A DNA stretch of 24,000 bases from an uncultured Geobacter sp. (GTDB lineage: Bacteria; Desulfobacterota; Desulfuromonadia; Geobacterales; Geobacteraceae): NCBI GenBank assembly GCA_964389825.1, contig CAYMFO010000031.1, positions 1 through 24,000 on the forward strand, given 5' to 3'. The translations under genes and the position numbers were made by a program. Numbering within the stretch: the stretch's first letter is position 1; each line of letters opens with the position of its first letter. The notes below the pieces were generated by a model. It was given only the letters and a program-made list of their open reading frames with translations. It did not search any database and was not told the origin of the DNA. Below are positions 1,809 to 23,276 of this stretch, piece by piece.

Positions 1809-2561
1809 ATGGAATACGGTACCGGCTGTCTCGTCTGCGGGGAAGATGTAGTCTACTCCGTGACATTATCAAGATCCACATGCTTCTACTGTGGAGCCAT
1901 TAAAGAAACAAACACCTCCTGTCGGCTTGGCCACTATGTCTGCGACACATGCCACAATGCTGGCGCAAACGACCTGATCGAGAGGTACTGTTCAGGCGCA
2001 AGTCGCCCCTCTCCCCTTGCCACGGCTATTAACCTGATGAAGAATCCGGCGGTCAAGATGCACGGGCCGGAGCATCATTTTCTCGTCCCGGCGGCGCTGC
2101 TCTCCGCTTTCCATTCAGCGACGAATCTCTCCGGATTAAACGCAGCGGAGAAAATTCGGGAGGCGAGAAGCAGGGCTGAAGAGGTTAAAGGAGGTTTCTG
2201 CGGCTTTCAGGGAGCGTGCGGCGCAGCCATTGGCGCCGGGATATTCATGAGTATCATCACCAGCGCCACCCCACTTTCAGACAGGGAACGGCAACTCTCC
2301 AACCTGATCACGGCCGAATGCTTGCTGGCCATTGCCGAAAACGGCGGTGCCCGCTGCTGCAAGCGTGAATCACTTCAGACCATCATCAGCGCCGCGGCAT
2401 TCGTGCAAAGGGAGATGGGGATCACCCTTCCCATCGATTGCCTGCCACCCTGCCCCTTTACTTCCAGGAACCGGGAATGCCTACGGGAAAGATGCAAATT
2501 TTTCCAGGGAACGGAGCGAAAACCAGGCACAAGCTCAGCAACACAAGGGAAAAGGAAATAA
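1809..2561 (+). CDS. Cys-rich putative metal/redox protein: N-terminal zinc-ribbon-like CxxC pairs plus a CGAxxG-type domain (DUF5714-like)
   Basis: 250-aa ORF. N-terminus has CLVCG..CFYCG..C..CDTCH. Central part has MHGPEHHFLVPAALL and GGFCGFQGACGAAIGAGIF, reminiscent of the C_GCAxxG_C_C redox family. C-terminal Cys residues are present (RCCKRE, CLPPCP). Family name is from memory, not searched. Confidence 0.55.
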   Translation: MEYGTGCLVCGEDVVYSVTLSRSTCFYCGAIKETNTSCRLGHYVCDTCHNAGANDLIERYCSGASRPSPLATAINLMKNPAVKMHGPEHHFLVPAALLSAFHSATNLSGLNAAEKIREARSRAEEVKGGFCGFQGACGAAIGAGIFMSIITSATPLSDRERQLSNLITAECLLAIAENGGARCCKRESLQTIISAAAFVQREMGITLPIDCLPPCPFTSRNRECLRERCKFFQGTERKPGTSSATQGKRK

Positions 2562-3366: not shown

Positions 3367-4764
3367 TTGTCCGTGCTGAAAAATATTCCGAAAGTCGACA
3401 AGGTAATGGATTGGCCGGAGATCAGCGGTCTTCTGGAGGAAAACCCGAGGCCGGTGGTGCTGGAAGCGGTGCGCCGCGCGCTGGACATGCTGCGTGCAGA
3501 GGCTCTGCGGGGAACCGCGACTGAAGAGGATTTCACGGAGAAATCCGTCACCGCCAGGGTCCGGGTCTCCCTGGACCGGGCAAACGCACCCGGACTGCGA
3601 CGGGTGATCAACGCCACCGGCGTCATTCTGCACACCAACCTGGGGCGCGCGCCTATATCGGAATCCCTTCGGGAATCCATCCTTGAAGCAGCTTTCGGAT
3701 ACAACACCCTGGAATTCGACCTGGAAATGGGTGTTCGCGGCCACCGGGCCATACACGTTGAGAAACTGGCGCAACAACTGACCGGCGCCGAAGCGGCGGT
3801 GGTGGTAAACAATAACGCGGCGGCGGTGATGCTGGCCCTCACCTCCCTTGCCAAGGGACGTGAGGTGATCGTCTCCCGGGGCGAACTGGTCGAGATAGGG
3901 GGCTCGTTCCGCATTCCCGAGGTGATGGAGCAGAGCGGAGCGATCCTGCGGGAGGTAGGCGCCACCAACAAGACCCATCTCCGGGACTACAGATCGGCAT
4001 TGACCCCTGACACGGCCCTCCTCCTCAAGGTCCATACCAGCAATTTCGCCATGGTCGGTTTTACGGCTGAGGTTAGCGTGGAGGATATGGCCGCCCTGGG
4101 CCGGGAGTCGTCCATTCCGGTGATGGTGGACGCGGGGAGCGGCTGTTTCGTGGATCTGGCCGCGCGCGGAATCCCCGGCGAACGCACGATCCGTGATTAC
4201 CTCGACGCGGGCGCTGACCTGGTGACCTTCAGCGGAGACAAGCTCCTGGGCGGCCCCCAGGCGGGGATAATCGTCGGCAAACGGGAATTCGTGGACCCCA
4301 TGAAAAAACATCCGCTCCTGCGGGCGCTGCGCGTGGACAAGGTTACCCTCGCGGCCCTCGAAGGGACACTGCGCCTCTACCGCGACGAACGTCTGGCCCT
4401 CTCCAGCATACCCACCCTGCGGATGCTGACCATGAGCGACTCCGAGCTTGCCTCACGCGCCTCCACCATGGTAAGGCGCATGCGCAGGGCTCTCCCTTCC
4501 TCCGTGGCGACAAAGACGCTGCGCGGGACATCGCCCGTGGGCGGCGGCTCTTACCCCCTGCTGGAAATCCCCTCGACCCTCGTCTCCGTCTCTATCCCCG
4601 GACTCTCCCCCCGGCAGCTTGAAGAAAAGATGAGGACCGGCCATATCCCCGTTATCGGCAGGATAGCGCGCGAAGAATACCTGCTCGACCCTCGCACCCT
4701 CCTGGACGGCGATATCGCGGATATTATCGACGCCATCAGGACCATCGCGGAAACGCCCCGGTAA
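3367..4764 (+). CDS. selA: L-seryl-tRNA(Sec) selenium transferase
   Basis: 465 aa, collinear with E. coli SelA as I recall it: INATGVILHTNLGRA, VVNNNAAAV, VSRGELVEIGGSFRIPEVM, and FSGDKLLGGPQAGIIVGK containing the PLP lysine. Start is TTG at 3367 (GTG at 3373 is an alternative). Confidence 0.95.
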   Translation: MSVLKNIPKVDKVMDWPEISGLLEENPRPVVLEAVRRALDMLRAEALRGTATEEDFTEKSVTARVRVSLDRANAPGLRRVINATGVILHTNLGRAPISESLRESILEAAFGYNTLEFDLEMGVRGHRAIHVEKLAQQLTGAEAAVVVNNNAAAVMLALTSLAKGREVIVSRGELVEIGGSFRIPEVMEQSGAILREVGATNKTHLRDYRSALTPDTALLLKVHTSNFAMVGFTAEVSVEDMAALGRESSIPVMVDAGSGCFVDLAARGIPGERTIRDYLDAGADLVTFSGDKLLGGPQAGIIVGKREFVDPMKKHPLLRALRVDKVTLAALEGTLRLYRDERLALSSIPTLRMLTMSDSELASRASTMVRRMRRALPSSVATKTLRGTSPVGGGSYPLLEIPSTLVSVSIPGLSPRQLEEKMRTGHIPVIGRIAREEYLLDPRTLLDGDIADIIDAIRTIAETPR

Positions 4765-5110: not shown

Positions 5111-7021
5111 TTATTTCCTCCTGGGCAGACGCTTGTCCCCTACCCTGATGGTCACTTTTTCCTGATCGAAGTATTCCAGCAGCGGCATCATGAACTTGCG
5201 GGAAAGACCTGTTATCTCCCGGAATTCCGGCGGCGTGATCTCTCCCTTTTCCCTCAGATATCCCACGAGGCGCGCCCTGATCTCCGCCAGAGCTTCCGGC
5301 GCGTAGAAGACATCACTCTTGATCTTCACCACCCTGCCGGTCCGCGCCAGAAGGTTGATGTGATCCATCAGTTCCTTTTCCCCCCTGCCGAGACGCTGCC
5401 CCAGCTCCTTCAGGTTGGGGGGCTCCATGCCGGCATCCCGCAGCGCGGCCTCGATCTTTTCCAGCAGCTCCTCTCCCGAAGGTTCGCCTCCCGCCTTCCA
5501 CCCCGGTTTTTTCACCAGGTCCCTGTCCACGATGGCCTTTTCTTCCTTCTCCAGGGACGCAAGGAGCGGACCGAAGAAGCGGAGGTCCGACCTCCTGGGG
5601 ATGCGGGCCTTCAGCTCTTCCTTGCCGATCCCCTCCTTCAGGGGATTTTCCCGCAGATATGCGTCAAGGCCTTCGAGCAGCAGCGTCTTCAGGGCCTCGA
5701 ACGACTCCTTGGCCAGCAGGATGCGCGGCTCGCGCACCATCTGCGACACCAGTCCCTTGGAAAGAAGGGCGGCAAGAGCGGCCTCGGTCCGTTTCGCCGA
5801 AATGCCGCCGCGGATGACGAGCTCATCCATGGTGATGCCGGTGAGCAGGCTTTCCCTGGTCAGGAGGAGTATCCTGTCCGCGTCCTCCCCCCCTTCCAGC
5901 GATTGCAGGAGCTCCAGCGCCTGGGCCGAACGGCGGCGGCGGCGCGGAGGCGCCGGGTCCAGCACCTGTCCGCCACCAACGGTAATCTCCGGGGAATAAC
6001 TGCGCATGATGAACAGGTCTCCGGGCAGGAGCAGCACCGGTTTCTTGAGGCGCAACTGGACCAGGGTGGAATCCCCCGGCTTGAGGGTGTCCCGGTCCAG
6101 CAGGATCACCTGGGCGGACACCTCATAGGTGGCGGAATGAAGGCGGAGGGTGGCCCGGTGCTTCAGTTCACGGGGCGCGGAAGGGAGAAAACCCAGACGG
6201 GCATCCACGGCCCGGGTGGATCGGAACGCCCCGCGGGGCGCCACCACGTCGCCGCGCGCGATATCGGTATATTCCACCCCCTGGAGATTGACCGCCACCC
6301 GCTGCCCGGCTGAACCCAGGTCCGCTTTCCGGCCGTGGGTCTGGACGCTGCGCACCCGCGTCTCAATGCCGGAAGGGAGAAGCTCCACCTCGTCGCCGGT
6401 GCGGATCTCCCCGGAAAGGAGAGTGCCGGTCACCACCGTGCCGAAGCCGGCCACGGTGAACACCCGGTCCACGGGAAGCCGGAACGGACCGCCCGTGGAT
6501 TTTTCCTCCACCTCGACCGCCAGCGCGGCCAGCCCGGCCTTGATATCCTCCAGTCCCTCGCCGGTCCTGGAAGAGACAGGGATAACCGGCGCGCCCTCGA
6601 GAAAGCTGCCCATGAGGTACTCACGCACCTCTTCGGCGACCATGTCCAGCCATTCCGCTTCCACCATGTCGCTCTTGGTAAGGGCCACCAGGCCCTTCTT
6701 CACTCCGAGCAACTGGCATATCTCCAGGTGCTCCCGCGTCTGGGGCATAACCCCCTCATCAGCGGCAATCACCAGCATCACCAGGTCCATGCCGCCAACG
6801 CCGGCAACCATGGTGCGGACGAATTTTTCATGGCCGGGCACGTCCACGATGCCGAAGCGGATATCGCCCGGCAGGTCCATGTGGGCGAATCCCAGTTCGA
6901 TGGTGATGCCCCGCTCCTTTTCTTCCTTGAGGCGATCGGTGTCGATGCCCGTAAGCGCCCTGACGAGGGATGTCTTGCCGTGGTCGATGTGGCCGGCGGT
7001 TCCGAGAATAAGGTGTTTCAT
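5111..7021 (-). CDS. selB: Selenocysteine-specific translation elongation factor
   Basis: 636 aa. G-domain motifs [19 protein letters not shown] and TKSD, followed by a long C-terminal winged-helix extension as in bacterial SelB. SD AAAGGA upstream of the ATG at 7021. Confidence 0.95.
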
Positions 7022-9214: not shown

Positions 9215-9970
9215 TTAAGGCTGCGCATTTCTTCCGCCCCGGCACAGTTTCAGATTTGTGCGGGCGGCATTCAGAATCGGCCAGTAGGTGTCGGCGTCGG
9301 CCGGCGGATACTCCTCGCGGATCTGTTCGTCCGTCTTTGCGGCGTCGGCTTCGAAACCTTTCAGAAGAGAAAGACAGATATCATCACGCTTCATCCTGTG
9401 ATAGGCGAGGGCGAGGTCGTTTTGTATCCAGCCCCTGTCCAGCCAGGTCATGGTCTTTGCACACTCCGTCAGCACAGGTTCCAGGAGGGCAACCGCTTCC
9501 GCATAGGCCTTCCTGTCATAGAGAACCTTGAAATCACGCCGGGATTTCCGTATCGCCCTGGGCAGGCAGGCCGGAGCGGGCTTGAAATATTCACCTTCAA
9601 AATAGGCGCGCATGCCGCAATAATAGTGACACGGTTCGTACGTCTCGGAACTGACCTTGATCGCGGCGCCCTTCGGGTCGAATCTGATGACGCACGCCTC
9701 GCCGGACTCGGTCAGGGTTGCGCTGCCATTCCTTATGACACCTTCCAGGCTGCACATGTGGGCGTTTCCACCCAGGGCGAATATGGTGAAGGAAAGCATG
9801 CCGTCCTTACCCTGCTTGATGGTCAGGTCACCCCACCCCCCTTCCGTTATATAGATTCCAGGATCGATAGCGCCCCCCTGCGCGCAGAGAGATTGTGGCG
9901 CCGCCAGAAAAATCAAGAACATCGACAAAAGCGGCAGTATCCGGCGCCAAAAGTTGAACGGCATTTTCAT
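9215..9970 (-). CDS. Secreted hypothetical protein (signal peptide, Cys-containing beta-rich domain plus C-terminal TPR-like helices), immediately downstream of hgcB
   Basis: ATG at 9970 preceded by GGAAGGAAG. N-terminus MKMPFNFWRRILPLLSMFLIFLAAPQSLCAQG is a typical signal peptide. Same strand as hgcAB, 116-nt gap. Confidence 0.65.
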   Translation of the reverse strand: MKMPFNFWRRILPLLSMFLIFLAAPQSLCAQGGAIDPGIYITEGGWGDLTIKQGKDGMLSFTIFALGGNAHMCSLEGVIRNGSATLTESGEACVIRFDPKGAAIKVSSETYEPCHYYCGMRAYFEGEYFKPAPACLPRAIRKSRRDFKVLYDRKAYAEAVALLEPVLTECAKTMTWLDRGWIQNDLALAYHRMKRDDICLSLLKGFEADAAKTDEQIREEYPPADADTYWPILNAARTNLKLCRGGRNAQP

Positions 9971-10086
9971 ACGGCTTCCTTCCAGGAACATATCTCCTTT
10001 CCCTCCCATTATCTTCAATAGCCGGGGGAATTCAACCGGTTCACTTTTCACGAAGACCGGGCGGCACATTCAGCCGGAACCCGATT

Positions 10087-10377
10087 TCAGGAACAGCAGC
10101 CTCTGTCGGAACGACCGATACCGTGCTTGCGCAGCCAGCGGTGTATCATGCCCGAAGCGCAACCGACCCCCGCATCCACCCGGATTGCGTCGAAGGGACA
10201 ATTTCTCATGCATGCCCCGCACTCCATGCAGGCATCCAGGTCCACGATGCGGGCAAGGCCTTTTTCCATACCGAATACCTGGTGAGGGCAGACCTCCACG
10301 CACCAGCCGCAGCCTTTGCATTTCTCCCTGTCCATCCTCAACGTAGCCACGTTCCGCAAGTACCTGAAACCCTTCAT
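10087..10377 (-). CDS. hgcB: Mercury methylation ferredoxin HgcB (2x[4Fe-4S])
   Basis: 96 aa from the ATG at 10377 (SD AAAGGAGA). Two CX2CX2CX3CP motifs (CKGCGWCVEVCP, CMECGACMRNCP), an additional Cys in GVGCASG, and a C-terminal vicinal Cys pair (RGCCS*). Begins 17 nt after the hgcA stop. Confidence 0.9.
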   Translation of the reverse strand: MKGFRYLRNVATLRMDREKCKGCGWCVEVCPHQVFGMEKGLARIVDLDACMECGACMRNCPFDAIRVDAGVGCASGMIHRWLRKHGIGRSDRGCCS

Positions 10378-10394
10378 AACGTCTCCTTTGCCCG

Positions 10395-11414
10395 TTAACG
10401 GGGCAATCCGGCGAGGACAAGGAGTCCGCCGATAATCAAGGCGAACCCCATTGCCGGCAACGCGAACCTCATCTCCTTTCTCACCCCCGATGGCGAGGTG
10501 AAGGTGGTGCAACCGGTGAAATTGAGGGTGTAGAATGCGCTCACCGCCGGAAGGGCAAGAAAGGCGCCGCCAATCGCAGCGTAATTCATACCCTGGATAC
10601 CGATGGCAAGGAAGTATGCCGCGGTCCAGACAATTCCCACCAGCGCCCCCTTGAAAGAAAAACTCCGGCCGGGAAGAAGGCCGAACAGGAGGGGTCCGAC
10701 GACTATTCCGGACAGCGCGGCGCCGATAAAGGCGACCAGCGCCCGAAGCGCGGCGGCCGGCCCCAGGAAGAAAGCAACCGTCAGAAACAGAAGCCCGCCG
10801 GCAACGCCCAGAGGCTTCAGAGCCGTCACCAGCTCCACCGGCGTCAGCGCCAGCCGCTCCCGGAAAGTAAATGTCAGCTCCCGCATGGCCGGCGTTGTCA
10901 CCATACCGTTGTCCAGGTATTCCGGCAGGTCGTTCGCCCGGATGGCCGCATAACGCACTTCGAAACCGGTCCGCTTTTTCACTTCATGGGCCGCAACGCC
11001 CGGCGCTCCCAGGATCGGTAGTATCAGGGTCGCCCGGCCGGCGAATGACTTCAGATTGGTCGCCTCAATCCTCGCTATCAGCTCTCCGGTACCGAAAGTC
11101 CCCTTTCCCGCCGCACACCAGACGTTGACTCCGAAGGTCTCGAGGACGAGGAGCCAGATGTTCCGTCCCGCCAGGGAGCGGCGCACGATGTCGTAACTCA
11201 TCTTGTAATTGGCGGTCACGACCACCGGATCTCCGGGCGACGGCGCGCCGACGGCGTACAGGCCGGGAGGAACCAGATAACTCATGCGGCCAATCCCCCA
11301 CCGGGCCTTCCATGCGCCGCAACGATCCGAAAAGGCGAGTTCCGGAGATATTCGCGCAACCCTGCCGGATTCCGTAACCAGCCATCCAAGAAAGCCCGGA
11401 ACCGATTCATCCAC
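10395..11414 (-). CDS. hgcA: Mercury methylation corrinoid protein HgcA
   Basis: 339 aa from a GTG start. The N-terminal corrinoid-binding domain carries the diagnostic cap-helix motif NVWCAAGKGTFG (codons at 11103-11126, Cys codon 11115-11117). The C-terminal half is a hydrophobic domain of about 5 helices. Followed by hgcB. Confidence 0.92.
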   Translation of the reverse strand: MDESVPGFLGWLVTESGRVARISPELAFSDRCGAWKARWGIGRMSYLVPPGLYAVGAPSPGDPVVVTANYKMSYDIVRRSLAGRNIWLLVLETFGVNVWCAAGKGTFGTGELIARIEATNLKSFAGRATLILPILGAPGVAAHEVKKRTGFEVRYAAIRANDLPEYLDNGMVTTPAMRELTFTFRERLALTPVELVTALKPLGVAGGLLFLTVAFFLGPAAALRALVAFIGAALSGIVVGPLLFGLLPGRSFSFKGALVGIVWTAAYFLAIGIQGMNYAAIGGAFLALPAVSAFYTLNFTGCTTFTSPSGVRKEMRFALPAMGFALIIGGLLVLAGLPR

Positions 11415-11601
11415 TACTCCGCCGCCGGCGGAGGTTTCCGGTCCTCAACAGGGTGGTTTTTCCATGCCTTGCGCCGGAGAATCACAACCATTGGATGATT
11501 CCACCTTCTTCTTTTCAGCAAGGATGTTTCCGGTTTCCATTTCACAAGATTCCATTTCAGGGCCTTCCGTTTATGCGCCTGGGCAACAGCTATCGTGCAA
11601 G

Positions 11602-11630
11602 AGCATAAATCAATTGATCGCAATTGGCAA
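11602..11630 (-). promoter_or_regulatory. Candidate sigma70 promoter of hgcAB with an embedded perfect palindrome
   Basis: On the minus strand: TTGCCA (rc of 11625-11630), 17-nt spacer, TATGCT (rc of 11602-11607). The spacer contains the perfect 10-bp palindrome ATCAATTGAT (11609-11618). Predicts a 5' UTR of about 180 nt. Confidence 0.35.
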
Positions 11631-11745: not shown

Positions 11746-11771
11746 ATTATATGATTATGCAATCATATAAT
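11746..11771. promoter_or_regulatory. Perfect 11-4-11 inverted repeat, candidate ArsR/SmtB operator overlapping the arsR promoter
   Basis: ATTATATGATT (11746-11756), atgc, AATCATATAAT (11761-11771). Contains TATAAT (11766-11771) 17 nt before the arsR ATG. TTGACT/TTGACG -35-like hexamers lie at 11720-11730. Confidence 0.55.
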
Positions 11772-11788: not shown

Positions 11789-12103
11789 ATGAACGACAGA
11801 GACGTACTACTTGCGGACATCCTGAAGGCCATGGCTCAACCGACCCGTCTGAAGATCATCGAATTCCTGCGGGACGGGGAGCGATGCGTCTGCGAGATAT
11901 TCCCGGCCATTGACGAAGAGCAGTCCAACACATCCCGCCACCTGAACCTTATGATGAACCTCGGGATACTCAGGCGCCGCAAGGAAGGCGTAAAGATCTT
12001 TTACGCCCTGAAGTACCCGGAGGTCCTGGAGATACTGGGCCTGGCATCATCGATCCTGAAGAAGGAGATAAACGGCAAGAGCGACCTGCTCCGGGCTGTG
12101 TAA
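11789..12103 (+). CDS. arsR: ArsR/SmtB-family metalloregulator (divergent from hgcA)
   Basis: 104 aa. KAMAQPTRLKIIEFL, a CVC motif (GERCVCEI), and recognition helix SNTSRHLNLMMNLGILRRRKEG. Confidence 0.9.
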   Translation: MNDRDVLLADILKAMAQPTRLKIIEFLRDGERCVCEIFPAIDEEQSNTSRHLNLMMNLGILRRRKEGVKIFYALKYPEVLEILGLASSILKKEINGKSDLLRAV

Positions 12104-12211
12104 ACGGAAGCCTTCGCGCGATATGCGCCAATGATACTGGGGTCTGCTGTGGAAAAAAAGATATTCTCCCCGCCAGGACTCCATAACAAACGACCGAAAA
12201 GGAGAAAGAGG

Positions 12212-12439
12212 ATGAAGATCGAGATTCTGGGAACCGGATGCGCGAAATGCAAGAAGCTGTATGAAAACACCCTGGAAGCGGTGAAACTGAGCGGCAGGCA
12301 AGCCGAGGTGGGAAAGGTTGAAGACATCAGGAAAATCAGTGAATACGGAGTCATGGCCACCCCCGCCATCGTAGTGGACGGCGAGGTAAAGGCATCGGGC
12401 AAGCTCCTTTCACCTGACGATATCATGAAGCTTCTGTAA
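12212..12439 (+). CDS. Small thioredoxin-fold protein (redox-active disulfide protein 2 / TM0996-MTH895-like)
   Basis: ATG at 12212 after AAAAGGAGAAAGAGG. 75 aa: MKIEILGTGCAKCKKL (CxxC) ...ATPAIVVDGEV, as in the small Trx-like proteins that commonly accompany ArsR plus permease genes. Confidence 0.8.
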   Translation: MKIEILGTGCAKCKKLYENTLEAVKLSGRQAEVGKVEDIRKISEYGVMATPAIVVDGEVKASGKLLSPDDIMKLL

Positions 12440-12454
12440 GGTCGAGCCAGCGCC

Positions 12455-13759
12455 ATGAATGCTTCAATTGTAAAGAAGCCGGCGGGAAGCGCCGGAATTC
12501 TCTTCCGCGCGCTTCTGTTGCTCCTTGTTATTACGGCTCTCCCGGCGCCCCTTCCCGCCCTTGCGGACAGCGCGTCGCGGGCGGACAACCCGGCCTTGTT
12601 CTTCTTCTGGGGGATCGGCTGCCCCCACTGTGAGGATGCCAAGCCGTTTGTTGAATACCTTGGACAAAGCTATCCCGGAATACGGATCCACTCCCTGGAG
12701 GTTGTTAAAAACAAGAATAACCTGAATCTGATGGAAAGAATGGTTCGGGAAAGGGGCGCGGAATCCAGCGGCGTGCCGGTATTCATCATTGGAAAGAGCG
12801 TTTTCTCTGGATTCAATCACACCATGACACGCGGGATCGAAGAAGCCGTTTCGGAAGAGATCGCCCGCAAAAAGCCCGGCGGCGAGCCTTCCGCCCGGCC
12901 TCCGGCACGAAAAGAAGCGGATACCATCTCCCTTCCCTTTATCGGGAAAAGGGACGCCGCCTCTTTTTCCCTCCCGGTCTTTACCGTTGCGGTCGCGGCC
13001 CTGGACAGCTTCAATCCCTGCGCCTTCTTCGTCCTCCTCACCCTTTTGAGCCTGCTCGTCCATGCGCATTCACGCAGGCGAATGCTGCTCATAGGGGGGG
13101 TGTTCGTCTCCGTTTCCGGCATTCTCTACTTTTTCTTCATGGCCGCCTGGATGAACCTCTTTTTCGTTGTCGGGCACCTCTCCGTGGTAACCAGGGTCGC
13201 GGGAATAACGGCCCTCGCCATAGCAATCATCAACATCAAGGACTATTTCCTGTTCAGAAAGGGCATATCCCTTAACATCCCGGAGAAATCAAAACCGAAG
13301 CTGTTCGAACGCATGCGGGGACTCATGCGCGCGGAATCCCTCCCCTCGGCGCTCACCGGCACAATCATCCTGGCAGTCGCGGCAAACAGCTACGAACTGT
13401 TATGCACCGCCGGTTTTCCCATGGTGTATACCCGTTTTCTCACCATGCATTCCCTGTCGACAGCCGGTTACTATGCCTATATTGCCTTCTACAATCTTGT
13501 CTACGTCATCCCCCTGGCCATCATTGTTTCCTTCTTCGTCATTACCATGGGGAGCCGCAAGCTCAGCGAATGGCAGGGACGCGTCATGAAGCTCGTATCC
13601 GGGATGATGATGTGCGGTCTTGCCTTCGTTCTCCTCCTGAAACCGGAACTGCTGCAGGATGTCAAGGCCTCGGTCCTTCTCTTCCTGGGGGTCCTCATCA
13701 CCTCTGCCCTTATCGTCCTGGTGACGCGAAAAAGGCTTCAGTCCCGTCGGGCGCCATAA
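12455..13759 (+). CDS. Fusion protein: signal peptide, periplasmic thioredoxin-like CxxC domain, and a DsbD/CcdA-like polytopic membrane domain
   Basis: 434 aa. Signal-like N-terminus ending PALADS. Trx motif FFFWGIGCPHCEDAKPF, charged linker, then about 6 hydrophobic helices with membrane-embedded Cys motifs (LDSFNPCAFF, YELLCTAGFP). Confidence 0.75.
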   Translation: MNASIVKKPAGSAGILFRALLLLLVITALPAPLPALADSASRADNPALFFFWGIGCPHCEDAKPFVEYLGQSYPGIRIHSLEVVKNKNNLNLMERMVRERGAESSGVPVFIIGKSVFSGFNHTMTRGIEEAVSEEIARKKPGGEPSARPPARKEADTISLPFIGKRDAASFSLPVFTVAVAALDSFNPCAFFVLLTLLSLLVHAHSRRRMLLIGGVFVSVSGILYFFFMAAWMNLFFVVGHLSVVTRVAGITALAIAIINIKDYFLFRKGISLNIPEKSKPKLFERMRGLMRAESLPSALTGTIILAVAANSYELLCTAGFPMVYTRFLTMHSLSTAGYYAYIAFYNLVYVIPLAIIVSFFVITMGSRKLSEWQGRVMKLVSGMMMCGLAFVLLLKPELLQDVKASVLLFLGVLITSALIVLVTRKRLQSRRAP

Positions 13760-13895
13760 ACCGCACTTAAACGCCACAAGCCATTTGCGAGTTACGACGA
13801 AACGGCCTCAGGGGTTCCGGAACGCGCCAGTAAGCAGTTTTTCAGAAACCGCCTGGACGAACGGGCGCACATCAAGCAAAAAGAGAGGAACCGGA

Positions 13896-14276
13896 GTGAA
13901 AAAGATATTATTGGCATCATTGGCTCTCATTCTATTCGTAACCTCGGCCTTCGCCAACGACAGGGGATCCGAGCCGATCATCCGGCAGGCGCTTGCTTCG
14001 GGCAGGCCTACCCTTGTCGATTTCGGCGCCGCCTTCTGCGTCCCCTGCAAGCGGATGAAACCGATACTGGATGCGCTGAAAACGGAATACTCAGGCAGGG
14101 CAAACGTTATCTTCGTGGACATCAAGCAGGAACGTGATATGGCTTCCCGGTACCGCATAATGCTCATGCCGACCCAGGTCTTCTATGATGCCGGGGGAAA
14201 AGAGATGAAAAGACACATGGGGTTCATGGACAAACCGGAAATCATAGCGGAATTCAAGGCCCTGGGCGTAAAATGA
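13896..14276 (+). CDS. Periplasmic thioredoxin-family protein (TlpA/ResA-like) with signal peptide
   Basis: GTG at 13896 after AGAGAGGA. VKKILLASLALILFVTSAFA signal peptide. LVDFGAAFCVPCKRMKP CxxC motif. Its stop overlaps the ccdA start (ATGA). Confidence 0.8.
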   Translation: MKKILLASLALILFVTSAFANDRGSEPIIRQALASGRPTLVDFGAAFCVPCKRMKPILDALKTEYSGRANVIFVDIKQERDMASRYRIMLMPTQVFYDAGGKEMKRHMGFMDKPEIIAEFKALGVK

Positions 14277-14959
14277 GCTTCCTGGACAATATCGAGCACA
14301 TCATCGCGGCATACCCTATCATCGCCTTCGGCGCGGTGTTTCTGGCCGGGATTATTTCATCCGCCTCCCCCTGCGTCCTGGCCACAATCCCCCTGGTGGT
14401 CGGGTACGTGGGCGGGTATGCGGACGGAGACCGGAGAAAGGCCTTTCTCTATTCCGTCGCCTTTATCCTGGGACTTTCCCTTACCTTCACCGCATTCGGC
14501 GCGGCCGCGGGCATGCTCGGCGTCATGTTCGGGATGATCGGCGGCTGGTGGTACGCGGCCCTGGGCGTGGTCGCGGTGGCCATGGGGCTTCAGATGCTGG
14601 GCTTGTATCAGCTTCGCCTTCCCTTTCATGTGGAGGTGAAGCCGAAGCGGAAGGGGATTTTCGGGGCCTTCCTGCTGGGCCTGTTTTTCGGCGTCGTGTC
14701 CTCGCCATGCGCCACGCCGGTACTGGTGGTGATCCTTACCCTGGTGGCCAGCAAGGGCGAGGTAGCCTACGGCACGGCGCTCCTCTTCGTGTACGCCGTC
14801 GGCCACTGCATGCTCATGCTGCTGGCCGGGACCTTTACCGGCTTTGTCGAGGCATTTGTCAAGGCAAAGGGCGTGAGGAACTTTTCCGAATGGTCGAAGC
14901 GGATCGGCGGCGCAATCATATCTCTGGTGGGGGTGTATCTGCTGTATCAGGCGTTCTGA
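14273..14959 (+). CDS. ccdA: CcdA/DsbD-family transmembrane thiol:disulfide electron transporter
   Basis: 228 aa, about 6 TM helices, with conserved Cys motifs SSASPCVLATIPL and VSSPCATPVL. ATGA-coupled to the upstream thioredoxin. Confidence 0.85.
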   Translation: MSFLDNIEHIIAAYPIIAFGAVFLAGIISSASPCVLATIPLVVGYVGGYADGDRRKAFLYSVAFILGLSLTFTAFGAAAGMLGVMFGMIGGWWYAALGVVAVAMGLQMLGLYQLRLPFHVEVKPKRKGIFGAFLLGLFFGVVSSPCATPVLVVILTLVASKGEVAYGTALLFVYAVGHCMLMLLAGTFTGFVEAFVKAKGVRNFSEWSKRIGGAIISLVGVYLLYQAF

Positions 14960-15079
14960 GTCTGCTGTCCGGGAATGGCGTGGGGATTTTCAGAAAGTTA
15001 CATCATGATTGGAATCCGACAAGCATGAACTGAGTTTCCAGGTTGGCGGGGAAGAAAATGGATGTGAAAGGACAACAGT

Positions 15080-16381
15080 ATGAACTGGAAGGATGAGTGG
15101 AAACCACTCACACTGATTATTGCGGTGTTTCTCGCCTGCTACTACCTGCCCGTGGGTACGGGACGCTTCGACAATGCAATTCTGGAAGCATTTCATCTGG
15201 TCAAGTGGTACGCGCAGGAGCATGTGATCCTGTGTCTGGTGCCGGCCTTTTTCATTGCAGGCGCCATTGGCGTGTTTGTCAGCCAGGCATCGGTGATGAA
15301 GTACCTGGGACCCAGGGCCAACAAGGTGCTGGCCTATGGTGTGGCGTCGGTATCCGGCACCATCCTGGCGGTCTGCTCCTGCACCGTGCTGCCGTTGTTT
15401 GCCGGCATCTATTTCCGCGGCGCCGGCTTGGGTCCTGCGTCGGCCTTTCTCTATTCGGGACCGGCGATCAATGTCCTGGCCATCGTTCTCACTGCGCGGG
15501 TGCTCGGTCCGGAACTGGGCATAGCCCGGGCCGTGGGCGCGGTTGTTTTCAGTGTCGTCATCGGCGTGTTGATGCACCTTATCTTTATCAAGGAAGAGCG
15601 GGAAAAAGCGGAAGCCCAGGTGGTCCTGCCCGAGGACGGGGTGAGTCGGCCTCTGTGGCAGAACGCGCTCTACTTCGCTTCCATGGTCGGCATCCTGGTG
15701 TTCGCCAACTGGGGAAAACCGGCAGAGCCGACCGGCGTCTGGGCAGCCCTCTATCAGAACAAGTGGATTCTCACTTCGCTCTCGGCGCTTGCCCTGAGTA
15801 TCATGATGGTGGCGTGGTTCGGCGTGAAGGCCTGGAAGGTGGTTTCGTCGGTGATAGTGGTTGCCGTTCTGGCGTTCATTTTTCCCGGGCAACCGATGGT
15901 CCCCTTCATTGTCGGCGTAATAGCCCTCTCGCTCATCACTACCACCGGCACGGAGGAAACCTCCGAATGGTTTTCTTCCACCTGGGATTTCGCGAAAAAG
16001 ATTCTCCCTCTGCTGCTGTTCGGCGTGCTGATTGCCGGAGCGCTTCTGGGACGGGTCGGGTACGAGGGAATCATCCCCTCGGAATGGGTGGCTCGTGCGG
16101 TGGGCGGCAACTCCCTGTGGGCCAATTTCTTCGCATCGTTCGCCGGGGCTTTCATGTACTTCGCAACCCTGACCGAGGTGCCGATCCTGCAGGGTCTGAT
16201 TGGTTCGGGTATGGGCAAGGGGCCGGCCCTGGCTCTGCTGCTGGCCGGACCGGCCCTGTCGCTCCCCAACATGCTGGTGATCCGCAGCATCATGGGGACC
16301 AGGAAGACGGTGGTGTTCGTATCGCTCGTCATTATCATGGCGACCATAACCGGTATGATATTCGGCGCCTTTTTCGGATAA
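15080..16381 (+). CDS. Polytopic permease of the PF03773 (ArsP/YraQ-like, 'predicted permease') type
   Basis: 433 aa with SD GAAAGGA. Multiple TM helices and a vicinal Cys motif LAVCSCTVLPLF, like the Cys pair in ArsP-type permeases. Substrate unknown. Confidence 0.75.
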   Translation: MNWKDEWKPLTLIIAVFLACYYLPVGTGRFDNAILEAFHLVKWYAQEHVILCLVPAFFIAGAIGVFVSQASVMKYLGPRANKVLAYGVASVSGTILAVCSCTVLPLFAGIYFRGAGLGPASAFLYSGPAINVLAIVLTARVLGPELGIARAVGAVVFSVVIGVLMHLIFIKEEREKAEAQVVLPEDGVSRPLWQNALYFASMVGILVFANWGKPAEPTGVWAALYQNKWILTSLSALALSIMMVAWFGVKAWKVVSSVIVVAVLAFIFPGQPMVPFIVGVIALSLITTTGTEETSEWFSSTWDFAKKILPLLLFGVLIAGALLGRVGYEGIIPSEWVARAVGGNSLWANFFASFAGAFMYFATLTEVPILQGLIGSGMGKGPALALLLAGPALSLPNMLVIRSIMGTRKTVVFVSLVIIMATITGMIFGAFFG

Positions 16382-16866
16382 TGGGAATCGCTACCCTTTC
16401 AATCACAGGTATCGGCGCCATGCTCAAGATCGTAGGGAAAGCCCTGTGCATATTCGTCCTGATACAAATTTTCCTTCTTCATCATGCTGAAGCGGGAGTG
16501 ATTGGCATAACAAACAAAGAATTGTCGGCTTTGCTCGAACAAGGAGTACCTGTCATAGACATCCGCACTGAAAGGGAATGGCGGGAAACCGGCGTTATAC
16601 CGGGCAGCCATCTGCTGACCCTGTTCGACGAAAGGAGGCGGATGCTGGATCCCGGGGTCTGGCTGGAAAAGGTCCGGGCACGGGTTCCAATGGACAGACC
16701 GGTTATCCTTGTCTGCCGCGTCGGCAACCGCACCGTTCCGGCAACGAGATTTCTGGCAACATCAGGATACAAAACTGTGTACAACGTAACCGACGGTTTA
16801 GTGCCATGGATCAAGGCCGGCAAGCCGATAGTGAAGTATCCCGGCTCCTTGTCGGGGTCAATCTGA
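16381..16866 (+). CDS. Rhodanese-domain sulfurtransferase with N-terminal signal/anchor
   Basis: ATG overlaps the permease stop (TAATG); an alternative ATG lies at 16420. Hydrophobic N-terminus, then a rhodanese fold with the active-site loop CRVGNRT. The 589-aa ORF in the track is real only in its last ~161 codons. Confidence 0.75.
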   Translation: MGIATLSITGIGAMLKIVGKALCIFVLIQIFLLHHAEAGVIGITNKELSALLEQGVPVIDIRTEREWRETGVIPGSHLLTLFDERRRMLDPGVWLEKVRARVPMDRPVILVCRVGNRTVPATRFLATSGYKTVYNVTDGLVPWIKAGKPIVKYPGSLSGSI

Positions 16867-18184: not shown

Positions 18185-18523
18185 ATGAAAAACACCGCTC
18201 GCATGTTCAAGGCCCTTTCCGATGAAACCCGCCTTCGCATTCTCTGCCTGCTGCTGGAGGGAGAGTTGTGCGTCTGCGACTTGATGGCGGTGCTCCAGCT
18301 TCCCCAATCCACTGTTTCGCGGCACCTGGCCTACCTGAAGAACTCCGGATGGGTGGATGACCGCAGGTGCGGGGTGTGGATGTACTATTCCATCACGGGC
18401 AACGGCGGCCAATTACGGAATGGGTTGCTCGAAAGCCTGCGCAATGCCGTGCCCGGCCTCGAAGTCGCCGCCTCGGATCGCGGGCGCCTGAACGAGATGG
18501 GACAAAACAGCAGGTGCGCATGA
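18185..18523 (+). CDS. arsR: ArsR-family arsenic-responsive repressor
   Basis: Internal ATG at 18185. FKALSDETRLRILCLLLEGELCVCDLMAVLQLPQSTVSRHLAYLKNSGWV carries the ELCVCDL As(III)-binding motif and the HTH. Confidence 0.9.
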   Translation: MKNTARMFKALSDETRLRILCLLLEGELCVCDLMAVLQLPQSTVSRHLAYLKNSGWVDDRRCGVWMYYSITGNGGQLRNGLLESLRNAVPGLEVAASDRGRLNEMGQNSRCA

Positions 18524-18587
18524 GTATGCGGATAAATGGCTGAAGACGTAAGGGAAACCGATATATTTTTTGCCACATTAACCCGCT

Positions 18588-18598
18588 TATACGGATAT
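18588..18598 (+). promoter_or_regulatory. Second exact copy of the TATACGGATAT motif, 16 nt upstream of the arsC start
   Basis: This 11-mer is identical to 18165-18175. A related CGGATA lies at 18529-18534, and ATCCGTAT at 19056-19063 upstream of acr3. Confidence 0.35.
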
Positions 18599-18613
18599 CC
18601 CGAAGGAGAGATT

Positions 18614-19048
18614 ATGCCTAAAAAGAGAGCTCTTTTTCTCTGCACCGCCAACTCCTGCCGCTCGCAGATGGCGGAAGGGATTGCCGGCCATTTCCTGGGA
18701 GACCTGCTGGAGGCGTTTTCCGCGGGTACCGAGGCATCCTTTGTCAACCCGCGGGCCATCGAGGTGATGCGGGAAATCGGTGTCGATATCTCCGGGCAGC
18801 GCTCCAAGAACTTGGACGAATTTTCGGGCCGGTCCTTCGACTACGTGATTACCCTGTGCGGGGACGCCAATGAAAAATGTCCCCTCTTCTTCGGTGGAGT
18901 GCCAAGGACCCACATGGGTTTCCCGGATCCAGCCGGGGCGAGGGGTACGGAAGAAGAGATCATGGCGGAGTTCAGAAAGGTCAGGGATGACATGAAGGAC
19001 AGACTGACGGATTTCTTCAGGAAACAGTTGAAACAGGTTCCCGTGTAA
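18614..19048 (+). CDS. arsC: Arsenate reductase, LMW-PTP / thioredoxin-coupled type
   Basis: ATG after GAAGGAGAG. P-loop LFLCTANSCRSQMAEG (CX5R) and the downstream Cys pair TLCGDANEKCP, as in pI258-type ArsC. Confidence 0.9.
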   Translation: MPKKRALFLCTANSCRSQMAEGIAGHFLGDLLEAFSAGTEASFVNPRAIEVMREIGVDISGQRSKNLDEFSGRSFDYVITLCGDANEKCPLFFGGVPRTHMGFPDPAGARGTEEEIMAEFRKVRDDMKDRLTDFFRKQLKQVPV

Positions 19049-19081
19049 GAATCAAATCCGTATCGCAAGGAGGAGAGAGTC

Positions 19082-20161
19082 ATGGTACAGGGACTTACCA
19101 AAAGGCTTTCGTTTCTCGACCGTTATCTCACCGTATGGATCTTCGCGGCCATGTTTCTCGGCCTGGCGCTGGGATACTTTGTGCCGGCGTCAAAAACCCT
19201 CATCAACAAGTTTCAGGTGGGAACGACCAATATCCCCATCGCCATCGGCCTGATCCTGATGATGTATCCTCCCCTGGCCAAGGTCAAGTACGAGGAGATG
19301 CCCGAAGTGTTCAAGAACAAGAAGGTGCTCCTCCTTTCCCTGGCTCAGAACTGGCTGGTGGGACCGATCCTCATGTTCGCCCTGGCCCTGATTTTCCTGC
19401 GCGACTACCCCGAGTACATGGTCGGCCTCATCATGATGGGAATGGCGCGCTGCATCGCCATGGTCATCGTCTGGAACGACCTTGCCTGCGGCGACCGTGA
19501 GTATGCCGCCGGCCTGGTTGCGTTCAACTCAATCTTCCAGGTGCTGTTCTTCTCGGTCTACTGCTATGTTTTTGTTACGGTTCTGCCGCCGCTGTTCGGC
19601 ATCAAGGGGGCTGTGGTGAACATCACCATGGGCGAGATCGCCAAGAGCGTCTTCATCTACCTCGGCATACCGTTCCTTGCCGGAATGATAACCCACTTCA
19701 GCCTCACGCGCATCAAGGGCAAGGAATGGTTCGAAAAGTCTTTCGCCCCCGTCATCAGCCCACTTACCCTGATCTTCCTCCTGTTCACCATCTTGGTCAT
19801 GTTCGCCACCCAGGGAGACAAGATCCTGAGCAGGCCCTTTGACGTGGTCGTGATTGCAATCCCGCTTCTCATCTACTTTGTGGTCATGTTCGTTGTATCC
19901 TTCTTCATGAGCAAGAAGCTGGGCACCAACTACGAGAAGAGCGCCACCTTGTCGTTCACGGCGGCCAGCAACAACTTCGAGCTTGCCATTGCCGTTGCCA
20001 TCTCCGTGTTCGGCCTCAACTCCGGCCAGGCATTCGCCTCGGTCATCGGCCCGCTGGTGGAGGTGCCGGTCCTCATCAGCCTGGTCAATCTGGCATTCTA
20101 TTTTCAGAAAAAATATTTTCCCAAGCCCCTTATTATGCCTAAAAGATGCGATGTACCGTAA
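19082..20161 (+). CDS. acr3: ACR3-family arsenite efflux transporter
   Basis: 359 aa, about 10 TM helices. [13 protein letters not shown]-terminus and the conserved GMARCIAMV motif. SD AAGGAGGAGAG. Confidence 0.92.
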
Positions 20162-20197: not shown

Positions 20198-21544
20198 ATG
20201 AACGGCGCCGAACTGAAAAAAATCGAAAACTTTTCCGAATCCGAACAGCTTCCCTCCGTCAGGAGCTATCCGTCGCGCCTCTTTGTGGAGACGACCACCC
20301 GCTGCAACATGAAATGCCACATGTGCGTCAAACAGAGCATGGGCAGCGGACTGGTGGAGGGCGACCTTTCCTTCGAGACATTCGAGGCCATTGAACCGGC
20401 CCTTCCCCGGACTGAGGCGCTGCTCCTCAACGGCATCGGCGAGCCCCTTCTACATAGAAACCTGGAGTCTTTCATATCCAGGGCAAAGGAATTGATGCCC
20501 GCCGGAAGCTGGGTGGGCTTCCAGTCCAATGGACTTCTTCTCGACAAAACCCGCGCGTCATCCCTGGTCAGCGCGGGCCTGGACCGGATATGTCTTTCCC
20601 TTGACGCCATCTGTCCGGAAACATTCAGGAAAATCAGGGATGGGGGCGAGGTGAAAGACCTGGAACAGGCATTCACCGCACTCAAAACCGCCCGGAAATG
20701 GCATCCTGAAAGCAACCTTCAGGTGGGTGTCGAGTTCGTCGTCATGCGCGACAATATCCACCAGCTTCCCGACGTATTAAGGTGGGCCGCTGCGGCGGGT
20801 GTTTCCTTCGCTATTGTCTCTCATCTTCTCCCCTATGGCAGGGAACACGTCTCCCAGATTGCTTATGATTACAATACGCGGGAGGCCGTGGAACTATATG
20901 AGAAATGGCTCGGGAAGGCTAAGAAACGGGGAATCGACATCAGCGGATTCTTCCACACCTATCACTGCAAGTTTCTGAGGACCGCGGAAGAGCAGCGCAT
21001 GGTTGATTTTGTTCTGGAGATGCTGGCTGAAGCAAGGGCGAGAGACATCTTCCTGCACCTGGAGAACATCATGAAGAGAGATGTGGCCATGGCCGGCCAA
21101 CTGGCCGAAACCTTCCAGAAGGCCAGGGAGGTCGCCGTGGAGACGGGACTTGATCTCCGCCTTCCCGAAACCTCTCCCAGAAATGAGAGAAAGTGCGACT
21201 TCATAGACAATGGGGGGATGTTCATCTCCTGGGACGGGGATGTCCATCCCTGCTACTTTCTCTGGCACACATTCCAGTGTCACTTCTCCGGCCGCAAGAA
21301 ATATGTGAACAGGAAGATATTCGGAAATATCAACGACAAAGGTATCCTGGATATATGGAACGATCCCATGTATCGGGAGTTCAGGGAGGAGGTCACAAAG
21401 CACGAGTATCCATTCTGCTCCAACTGCAACCTGCTTCCCTGCGAATACATATATTGCGAGGAGTTCGAGCAGGACTGCTACGCCAACACCGTCCCCTGCG
21501 GTGACTGTTTCTGGTGCATGGGGCTATTTCAGTGCCTGTCGTAA
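20198..21544 (+). CDS. Radical SAM enzyme with C-terminal SPASM/twitch-like auxiliary-cluster domain
   Basis: 448 aa. CNMKCHMC (CX3CX2C) near the N-terminus, GIGEPLL SAM-binding motif. The C-terminus has CX13GX4C (CDFIDNGGMFISWDGDVHPC) and CSNCNLLPCEYIYC plus further Cys residues. Last gene of the same-strand ars cluster. Confidence 0.85.
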   Translation: MNGAELKKIENFSESEQLPSVRSYPSRLFVETTTRCNMKCHMCVKQSMGSGLVEGDLSFETFEAIEPALPRTEALLLNGIGEPLLHRNLESFISRAKELMPAGSWVGFQSNGLLLDKTRASSLVSAGLDRICLSLDAICPETFRKIRDGGEVKDLEQAFTALKTARKWHPESNLQVGVEFVVMRDNIHQLPDVLRWAAAAGVSFAIVSHLLPYGREHVSQIAYDYNTREAVELYEKWLGKAKKRGIDISGFFHTYHCKFLRTAEEQRMVDFVLEMLAEARARDIFLHLENIMKRDVAMAGQLAETFQKAREVAVETGLDLRLPETSPRNERKCDFIDNGGMFISWDGDVHPCYFLWHTFQCHFSGRKKYVNRKIFGNINDKGILDIWNDPMYREFREEVTKHEYPFCSNCNLLPCEYIYCEEFEQDCYANTVPCGDCFWCMGLFQCLS

Positions 21545-22049: not shown

Positions 22050-22178
22050 TCACGGGCAAAGACGCAAAGGAATTCCAACAGAAGCGGAACAAGCTGATAT
22101 CACCAGCAAGGTGAATGGTCCTATTTGGCAAGTTCCTGATTTTCCTTCGCGCCTTTGCGTGAGATCGCCTTTTTCAGG
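22050..22178. repeat. Copy B of the ~125-bp terminal-inverted-repeat element
   Basis: Aligns with 2588-2723 in the same orientation. Arms TCACGGGCAAAGACGCAAAGGAA (22050-22072) and TTCCTTCGCGCCTTTGCGTGA (22143-22163). Located between arsM and the downstream small gene. Confidence 0.7.
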
Positions 22179-22229
22179 TTGGTTAACAAATCAGGGATTA
22201 CCCTTCTTCTCCCATCGTGCGGAAAGACG

Positions 22230-23276
22230 CTAGGAACAGTCAAACGGCCCGTAATGGACAGACTTGTCGCCAGTTACGACAAAATGCCTGCCGAAACGGG
22301 TTTCCTCCACCATCGCCCCCGAGTTACCGCATACCAGCATCGGTTTGTCCTTGATGAACAGGTGATGGTCATCGAGGGGGAAGGCATCGGGGAAACCGGG
22401 CATAGTCCCTTTATAGACGGCAACCTGACCATAGTCTTCGCAGATATCTTCCAGGGGCAGCTTGAAGGTCCTGACGACCCGATAGGTGAAACCGGCCAGA
22501 CCGACCTTTTCCGCGGCGCCAGGTTTGCGCAGGGGCACGGGCTGCCTGCTGATGTTGCGGTAGTCATTGCAGCCAATATCCCGAAGAAGCCTGCGGAAGT
22601 CCTCGCTGTACATGGCGCGCGCGAAACCGGCCCGAAGAACGCACGAATCATCGGCAAGCCGGGGAGGAAGCCGCCGGTCGGCGAGCACCGTTGTGAAACA
22701 CAGCTCCCCGCCCGGTTTCAGGACCCGGAATATCTCGGAAAATATCGCACGCATGTCCGTGGAGATGTTGATAATCTCGTTGGTCACGACAACGTCGATG
22801 GAATTGTCCCCTATGCCGAGGGATCGCAGATCTTCGGGAAACCCCGTCATGAACCGTACATTTGGCTGTTCATAGCCGGATTTTTCCATCTGTCCGGGGA
22901 TGAACTTCTCCGCGACCTTTATCATCTCCTCCCGCATGTCCACGCCAATGACCTTGCCTGTCGGCCCGGCCAGCCGCGCAGCGGCAAAAGCGGTCAGCCC
23001 GTTGCCGCACCCCAGGTCGAGAACCACGCGCCCTTCCAGGTCCGGGGGCAGCGGAGAGCAGCTGCCGTGAGGCGCATCCAGCAACTCGGGAGGCATCTCC
23101 CGCAAGACATCGCCCATGCCCGGATGAAGTTGTTCAGCAACGCAACCGCAGCCGGATCTGATACGTTCCGCGAAAACCTCTTCATAGTAACTTTTCAGCT
23201 CATCGTTCACAGCATAACCCCCTTTATTGTTTTTATAATCATCAAGCAGATCCCGGAAACCGCGTCTCCAGCCCAT
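22230..23276 (-). CDS. arsM: Arsenite S-adenosylmethionine methyltransferase
   Basis: Collinear with ArsM as I recall it: SAM motif VLDLGCGNG, VIGVDM, KPGGEL, and conserved Cys residues (SGCGC, HGSCSPLP, EDICEDYGQ, PMLVCGNS). C-terminus FVVTGDKSVHYGPFDCS. ATG at 23276; TTG at 23285 is an alternative. Confidence 0.88.
   Translation of the reverse strand: MGWRRGFRDLLDDYKNNKGGYAVNDELKSYYEEVFAERIRSGCGCVAEQLHPGMGDVLREMPPELLDAPHGSCSPLPPDLEGRVVLDLGCGNGLTAFAAARLAGPTGKVIGVDMREEMIKVAEKFIPGQMEKSGYEQPNVRFMTGFPEDLRSLGIGDNSIDVVVTNEIINISTDMRAIFSEIFRVLKPGGELCFTTVLADRRLPPRLADDSCVLRAGFARAMYSEDFRRLLRDIGCNDYRNISRQPVPLRKPGAAEKVGLAGFTYRVVRTFKLPLEDICEDYGQVAVYKGTMPGFPDAFPLDDHHLFIKDKPMLVCGNSGAMVEETRFGRHFVVTGDKSVHYGPFDCS

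Follow-up and report, generated by a model that had tools for sequence, protein, structure and literature searches.

The gene pair hgcAB serves as a genetic marker for predicting environmental methylmercury production, and correct gene models for it matter both for surveys and for expression constructs. Among the described proteins, those closest to the locus considered here are HgcA of the selenoprotein form, which include that of Geobacter sulfurreducens (GSU1440) and that of Pseudodesulfovibrio mercurii ND132 (DND132_1056); cobalamin binding and Hg(II) methylation have been shown for both species in the literature. In 20 of the 20 HgcA genes re-examined by Haft 2022 (bioRxiv 10.1101/2022.07.06.499078), GSU1440 and the ND132 gene included, the reading frame was extended through a single UGA codon to a product of 363-400 amino acids (aa) in which the motif PCUGP, U being selenocysteine (Sec), is invariant. 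The same study described the Sec form for most HgcA proteins, found Sec at residue 73 in 6.4% of HgcB proteins and proposed a soft heavy metal as what the Cys-Sec (CU) pair of HgcA binds. HgcA (NF040863, CU) and HgcB (GVGU) both appear as selenoproteins in a 2026 review, and the selenoprotein proposal is acknowledged in the 2024 PNAS paper on purified HgcAB. The latter work on the ND132 enzyme identified S-adenosylmethionine (SAM) as the methyl donor, the binding of cobalamin by HgcA through C93, and the need for C73 and C94/C95 of HgcB. Here we analyse hgcA and hgcB in a stretch of 24,000 nucleotides (nt) from an uncultured Geobacter sp. (assembly GCA_964389825.1, contig CAYMFO010000031.1, positions 1 to 24,000), referred to below as the window.

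Judging from sequence comparison, and with a probability that we put at about 0.9, the locus encodes the mercury methyltransferase pair HgcAB of an uncultured Geobacter-type bacterium, with HgcA in its selenoprotein form. Within this known family the locus is nothing out of the ordinary, and it brings no new biology past Haft 2022; the Sec extension is its only non-obvious feature and has been in the literature since that year. What the window and its relatives do offer is a clean comparative case of 81 genes, in which UGA alternates with Cys codons and an RNA hairpin tracks the use of Sec.

An in-frame UGA codon within hgcA

On the minus strand, the open reading frame (ORF) of 339 aa reported in the earlier note (10395..11414) does exist, from a GTG at 11414 to a TAA stop at 10397-10395. 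Upstream of this GTG the frame remains open through one TGA (11447-11445) back to an ATG at 11555. Its translation reads MESCEMETGNILAEKKKVESSNGCDSPAQGMEKPPC up to the TGA and GPETSAGGGVVDES after it, and the junction takes the form GMEKPPC, TGA, GPETSAGGGVVDES. Homologs of 382-434 aa align across the whole of this N-terminal extension, where they carry the conserved motif DKPPCCGPP...GG.I.E.VPGF.

We compared the window gene with those of 80 related loci (one genome per species scanned), 81 genes in total. At the column of residue 37 the codon is TGA in 69 of them and TGC or TGT in 12, while TAA and TAG never occur; the 12 relatives with a Cys codon encode it within an unbroken ORF. The (D/E)KPPC that stands just before the TGA is among the best-conserved stretches of the N-terminal region, down to 55% overall identity. 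Wherever a locus is not cut off on that side, an in-frame start codon lies upstream of the TGA column, at a median distance of 36 codons, and the window shares with its two nearest relatives (L001 and L002) a GGAAGG placed 7 nt before the ATG. By this comparison the gene model with a 339-aa HgcA is truncated, hgcA begins 141 nt further upstream, and its product is predicted to be a selenoprotein of 386 aa with U37 in PCUGP. The earlier note had called the hgcA-hgcB pair complete; both genes are indeed real, and the part that has to be amended is the upper boundary of hgcA, which moves from 11414 to 11555. Automated calls for this lineage and for many relatives are likewise short, by 47-90 residues, and thereby lose the sole Sec and the conserved Cys-Sec pair.

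Like the proteins described by Haft, the window HgcA would reach its extension by the reading of one UGA as Sec; it falls with its 386 aa within the range of 363-400, has hgcB adjacent, and combines the PCUGP arm with the NVWCAAGKG corrinoid domain and a five-helix membrane domain. It departs from them in the segment before KPPCU, which is lineage-specific (MESCEMETGNILAEKKK..., in place of the common MKI(R/K)xIRK...), and in a 15-nt insertion that it has in common with L001 only. This insertion, ATGGAATCTTGTGAA (encoding MESCE), occupies the very 5' end of hgcA (11541-11555, minus strand), is absent from L002 and adds Cys4. A generic screen of the window for other genes interrupted by TGA was too noisy to be of use, and the hgcA site alone was convincing.

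A SECIS-like hairpin downstream of the UGA codon

A second line of evidence comes from a hairpin, CUCCGCC-GGC-GGCGGAG, that resembles a selenocysteine insertion sequence (SECIS). With the register kept constant, 65 of the 69 Sec-type genes and 0 of the 12 Cys-type genes could form either 6 or all 7 of the 7 pairs. In the alignment of the 69 Sec-type sequences, 94.5% of the cells of the helix are paired, against 44-76% in slid registers; four of the seven pairs have changed in both partners (U-A to C-G or G-C to A-U, for instance), and none of 500 shuffles reached the observed values. The peptide encoded across the hairpin follows Sec usage as well, being TSAGGG in Sec-type and ATT(G/R)GG in Cys-type genes, a covariation that is expected where an RNA structure constrains the coding sequence.

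For a bacterial SECIS of reference we turn to Escherichia coli fdhF, whose minimal element is the 17-nt upper stem-loop located 11 nt after the UGA, with a GGUC loop. The hgcA hairpins appear to share with that type the 11-nt spacer followed by a 17-nt hairpin, and a subset of HgcA genes, with a 5-bp stem and a GGUCA apical loop, may resemble the fdhF loop. Most HgcA hairpins, that of the window included, differ from it by a G+C-rich stem of 7 bp, a GGC (or CGGCG) loop and the lack of an obvious bulged U.

Family membership and architecture of HgcA and HgcB

Membership was judged by the NCBIfam equivalog cutoffs, which are 275 bits for HgcA_corrinoid (NF040863), 99 for HgcB_ferredoxin (NF040864), 306 for the gamma subunit of the corrinoid iron-sulfur protein (CFeSP)/acetyl-CoA synthase, and 285 for the HgcAB-like fusion. 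The window HgcA scores 418.9 bits against the first (E 1.3e-125), and HgcB 128.2 bits against the second, both far beyond chance, which bears out the identities proposed in the earlier note. That note had named a placement with CFeSP paralogues as the result that would overturn the assignment; against the CFeSP gamma model HgcA reaches 44.1 bits, and against the fusion model 164.8, both below threshold. With the window HgcA as query, a protein search gave 7509 homologs at E <= 1e-10, and those among them that bear a name are HgcA of Geobacteraceae and Desulfuromonadales. The nearest loci belong to two uncultured Geobacter metagenome-assembled genomes, with protein identities of 98% (L001) and 95% (L002) and DNA identities of about 93-97%; beyond these two, HgcA identity is at most 68% (Geobacter, Geomonas, Oryzomonas and Syntrophus genomes), and cultured Geobacter and Geomonas HgcA are 55-68% identical to it. 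The close relatives come without exception from Geobacter, Geomonas, Syntrophus and Desulfuromonadales, and hgcB adjoins hgcA in 79 of the 80 related loci. From the presence of hgcAB it is reasonable to regard the host as a probable methylator of mercury. As the earlier note had it, merA, merB and merR are missing from the window: the roughly 35 ORFs scanned gave no match to any of them.

Full-length HgcA would consist of an N-terminal arm, a domain that binds the corrinoid, and a membrane domain at the C-terminus (Table 1). The cap-helix motif NVWCAAGKGTFG lies where it had been reported, its Trp-Cys encoded by TGG TGT at 11120-11115, and the residues N, V, W, C, A, A, G and K of this motif are invariant in an alignment of 60 sequences. 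No solved HgcA structure was found in the PDB sequence search, in which CFeSP chains were the sole matches (E ~4e-4, about 110 residues of the corrinoid domain, query residues 47-157). We examined an AlphaFold2 model of a Cys-type homolog (P0006, 68% identical), built from 60 sequences, with a mean predicted local distance difference test (pLDDT) score of 79 and a predicted template modelling score of 0.72. The corrinoid domain and five membrane helices (230-263, 265-289, 298-317, 324-346 and 357-384) are confident in this model and, together with the hydropathy peaks of the window protein, agree with the hydrophobic C-terminal domain of about five helices noticed earlier. The top Foldseek match of the model is 9a0b, a published computational HgcAB model (43% identity), followed by the CFeSP corrinoid domains 2ycl, 2h9a and 4djd at a template modelling score of 0.27 over about 130 residues. 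HgcA and the large subunit of CFeSP (AcsC/CdhE; 4djd, 2h9a, 2ycl) thus have in common a homologous corrinoid domain of about 110-130 residues, whereas CFeSP has no cap-helix Cys ligand, no membrane domain and no Cys-Sec arm; conversely, only the corrinoid domain (about 110 residues) matches CFeSP, and the N-terminal [4Fe-4S] and triosephosphate isomerase-barrel domains of a full-length CFeSP are not part of the match.

The description of hgcB given in the earlier note stands in full. A spacer of 17 nt (CGGGCAAAGGAGACGTT) separates hgcA from the ATG of hgcB at 10377, and the 96-aa product has two CX2CX2CX3C motifs, with Cys at 20/23/26/30 in the first and at 50/53/56/60 in the second and a Pro after each; further on come Cys73, within GVGCASG, and Cys94-Cys95 just before the final Ser. 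The two CX2CX2CX3CP motifs, Cys73 and Cys94-Cys95 have identical numbering in HgcB of ND132. Residue 73 is Cys in the window and in all 80 related loci, so that the window HgcB is of the Cys form, unlike the rare Sec form with GVGU at this position.

Table 1. Features of the hgcAB locus and its surroundings (positions in the window)
Feature	Position	Strand	Evidence
hgcA, full-length coding sequence with stop, 386 aa, predicted Sec at residue 37, motif PPCUGPE	10395..11555	-	open frame; NF040863 418.9 bits; long homologs
UGA, predicted to be read as Sec (U37), after Cys36	11445..11447	-	aligns with second Cys of PCCGP in Cys-type homologs
SECIS-like hairpin, 17 nt, starts 11 nt past UGA	11417..11433	-	comparative pairing
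N-terminal arm, residues 1-47, with Cys4, Cys24, Cys36-Sec37	11415..11555	-	direct reading
Corrinoid-binding domain, relative of CFeSP large subunit	10869..11414	-	PF03599 CdhD; PDB CFeSP matches; Foldseek
Cap-helix Cys codon, NVWCAAGKG	11115..11117	-	Cys147 of 386 aa, Cys100 of the 339-aa ORF; equivalent to ND132 HgcA Cys93
C-terminal membrane domain, five predicted helices	10398..10838	-	hydropathy windows, residues 240-386
hgcB, coding sequence with stop, 96-aa 2x[4Fe-4S] ferredoxin, Cys form	10087..10377	-	NF040864 128.2 bits, E 7.9e-38 (cutoff 99)
Shine-Dalgarno-like GGAAGG, 7 nt 5' of ATG 11555	11563..11568	-	direct sequence reading
Candidate sigma-70-like promoter TTGCCA-17-TATGCT, 5' of hgcA	11602..11630	-	consensus scan, 9/12 matches, weak evidence
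selA, L-seryl-tRNA(Sec) selenium transferase	3367..4764	+	PF03841 SelA 497.9 bits; Se-cys_synth_N
selB, Sec-specific elongation factor binding SECIS	5111..7021	-	GTP_EFTU; SelB beta-barrel; SelB winged-helix 2 and 3
284-aa protein, signal-like hydrophobic N-terminus, directly downstream of hgcB	9215-10069	-	conserved in L001 and L002 only
arsR, divergent from hgcA	11789-12103	+	family scans
MTH895/ArsE-type thioredoxin	12212-12439	+	family scans
434-aa membrane protein with CPHC, no family match	12455-13759	+	family scans
Thioredoxin	13785-14276	+	family scans
DsbD_TM membrane protein	14273-14959	+	family scans
ArsP_1 permease, sub-threshold SO_0444 and SaoE efflux-family matches	15080-16381	+	family scans
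Rhodanese domain	about 16510-16815	+	family scans
arsR2-arsC-acr3	18200-20161	+	family scans
Radical SAM/SPASM protein, TIGR04311 (rSAM_Geo_metal, putative metalloenzyme maturase), 653 bits, between acr3 and ArsM-like gene	20198-21544	+	
ArsM-like SAM methyltransferase, sub-threshold arsenite methyltransferase matches including Sec-containing fusions	22230-23285	-	

Possible function of the Cys-Sec arm and alternative explanations

One may sketch how such a protein would be made and would work. SelB would recode the UGA of codon 37 as Sec, directed by the 17-nt hairpin 11 nt downstream. By analogy with the ND132 enzyme literature, HgcB would then reduce the corrinoid of HgcA to Co(I), SAM would donate a methyl group to Co(I), giving CH3-Co(III) whose lower axial ligand is the cap-helix Cys, and the methyl group would pass from the corrinoid to thiol-bound Hg(II). 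The arm, which is predicted to be flexible, might use ligand exchange to capture Hg(II), or some other soft metal or metalloid, or to hand it over, and we infer that the Cys-Sec pair may act as a flexible metal-capturing tether in concert with the Cys-Cys tail of HgcB. MerT (CC, rarely CU) and SaoL, SaoB and SaoC (CU) likewise have two neighbouring residues, Cys-Sec or Cys-Cys, on a segment that is mobile or exposed, but HgcA has no sequence homology with these proteins, and a metal-handling role of the pair in HgcA is putative. It is tempting to go further and to suppose that the Cys36-Sec37 pair of the arm is where Hg(II), or a different soft metalloid (As(III), for instance), physiologically enters HgcAB, a proposal that we regard as possible and nonetheless doubtful. 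If the arm captures Hg(II), selenium supply could affect activity. Were the arm truly the entry point, the supply of selenium and the decoding of Sec would act as a gate on methylmercury formation by methylators of the Geobacter type, and enzymology on arm-less recombinant HgcA would have missed the substrate delivery that takes place in vivo. In the window, hgcAB lies between selAB and an island of arsR, thioredoxin, DsbD, permease and ars genes, an arrangement that is circumstantial with respect to this proposal.

Several points weigh against the selenoprotein reading or against a catalytic part for the arm. Sec insertion and translation of the extension in this organism are predictions from sequence comparison. 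The fold of 11400-11470 (minus strand) as a single sequence does show the hairpin, at an energy no better than that of shuffles (z = 0.20), and the scan of the whole window returned no Rfam family at gathering score; the hairpin being unremarkable alone in its G+C-rich context, the case for it is the comparative one. A tRNA search aimed at tRNA-Sec found no tRNA gene in the window, hence no selC, and no selD was seen there either. Residues 1-35 of the P0006 model, the CC pair among them, have a pLDDT below 50, which is no proof of flexibility. When HgcAB of ND132 is produced as recombinant protein in E. coli, the lysates methylate Hg (2024 PNAS), and the HgcA construct used very probably lacked the Sec arm; the arm is therefore probably not required for catalysis itself. 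Lastly, it is contested in the literature that methylating Hg is what HgcAB does physiologically in the first place.

This dispute leads to the alternative that survives best, one which accepts the assignment to HgcAB but holds Hg methylation to be a side reaction, the native role, served by the Cys-Sec arm, being in arsenic or other metalloid chemistry or in the dehalogenation of halomethanes. The surroundings of hgcAB lend it some colour, with arsR, an ArsE-type thioredoxin, DsbD, an ArsP-like permease, a rhodanese, arsR-arsC-acr3 and an ArsM-like gene in the window and with at least 13 related loci in which arsR/arsC/acr3 immediately precede hgcA on its own strand. Moreover, an ArsR-like regulator controls hgcAB in ND132 and responds to arsenic and S-adenosylhomocysteine, as published, and a 2026 preprint describes the dechlorination of CCl4 by heterologously expressed HgcAB. 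But gene proximity is not function, the arsR of the window is divergent from hgcA and its palindrome (see below) looks like the arsR operon's own site, deletion of hgcAB abolishes Hg methylation in model organisms (Parks et al. 2013, as summarised in later papers), and in the literature that could be read no alternative substrate has established peer-reviewed biochemistry behind it. We consider this alternative unlikely.

Far less probable is that translation really ends with the TGA at 11447 and that HgcA is a Cys-only protein of 339 aa starting at GTG 11414, the frame upstream being non-coding or a separate short leader peptide. The GTG-initiated ORF exists, gene callers give similar products of 296-340 aa for many relatives, and the match to NF040863 begins at residue 19 of the short ORF, which passes the cutoff with no need of the extension. 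The GTG, however, is not kept even in L001, which is 98% identical and reads GTT GTC there, and it may thus be taken for a synonymous accident. Re-initiation after the TGA is not credible either, because the first ATG, GTG or TTG lies inside or past the conserved VPGF motif in 53 of the 69 Sec-type loci, where it would remove conserved sequence, and a start codon within 12 codons of the TGA is present in just 4 of the 69. Added to this, the stop is always TGA, the 12 relatives with Cys at the site have an uninterrupted ORF, the KPPC before the supposed stop is conserved and the hairpin tracks TGA usage. A further reading, in which we would be dealing with a paralogue of CFeSP from the acetyl-CoA pathway or with a relative of the HgcAB-like fusion type that does not methylate, can be all but dismissed, for although Pfam gives the generic CdhD domain (PF03599) alone and the JGI annotation labels several homologs acetyl-CoA synthase gamma subunit, the scores stated above pass the HgcA cutoff and neither of the others, CFeSP has neither the Cys motif of the cap helix nor the membrane domain, and a separate hgcB is adjacent.

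Selenocysteine genes in the window

The window carries selA and selB, convergent and some 3-7 kb from hgcA, and SelB keeps both of its SECIS-binding winged-helix domains; we assume that this genome has a complete Sec system. The synteny recurs in the 95% relative L002 and not in the other 78 loci. We accordingly rejected the proximity of selAB as a conserved trait of Sec-type hgcA, and the closeness looks lineage-specific rather than a conserved linkage. Between selB/selA and the 284-aa gene downstream of hgcB lie a small tetratricopeptide repeat ORF, other ORFs and a protein of the endonuclease/exonuclease/phosphatase family.

A DUF5714 ORF at 1809-2561 (plus strand, 197 bits) gave a partial, sub-threshold match to the double selenoprotein MbdU (137.8 against a cutoff of 600). 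It was examined as a second selenoprotein and discarded, the sequence past its stop looking non-coding; it appears to be a Cys-only, single-domain relative of the metal-binding MbdU. The ArsM-like gene was likewise rejected as a Sec fusion, as no credible continuation follows its stop.

Gene neighbourhood and ars genes

Divergently from hgcA, an operon-like block runs from arsR through the rhodanese gene (11789-16866, plus strand). Two long ORFs in this half of the window were set aside: that at 15097-16866 is an artefact which fuses an out-of-frame shadow of the permease with the rhodanese gene, and the 420-aa ORF at 22155-23417 (plus strand) is the antisense shadow of the ArsM-like gene. In the earlier note the neighbours of hgcAB were held to be unusual, a view that does not hold up: about 37 of the 80 related loci have ars genes no further than 10 kb from hgcA, and the link to arsR has been published. 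At least 13 of the related loci (L007, L008, L032, L041, L050, L051, L058, L060, L061, L063, L068, L071 and L073) carry orthologues of arsR2-arsC-acr3 immediately upstream of hgcA and on its strand, and several Geomonas loci have arsR alone in that position. In the window the three genes diverge from hgcA at a distance of about 6.6 kb, a placement suggestive of a rearrangement within the lineage.

A perfect palindrome, ATTATATGATT-N4-AATCATATAAT (11746-11771), is located 18 nt upstream of the divergent arsR (11789). Its 20-mer recurs 5' of orthologous arsR genes in L002 (9662-9681) and in L060 (20135-20154), the latter about 10 kb from hgcA. Given its distance of 18 nt from arsR and its recurrence at the L060 arsR, so far from hgcA, it was rejected as an hgcA operator; on its position it is probably a candidate ArsR operator of the arsR-thioredoxin-DsbD-permease operon itself.

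On the other side of the pair, the 284-aa protein, predicted to be secreted, gave no Pfam or NCBIfam match. In L001 (1706-3851) and L002 (11329-13469), about 2.1 kb separate hgcB from this gene, and the window is without that segment (junction 10083/10087). Read from ORF translations, with no family search, the segment of L002 encodes two AhpD/CMD-like proteins and a sigma factor of the extracytoplasmic function type.

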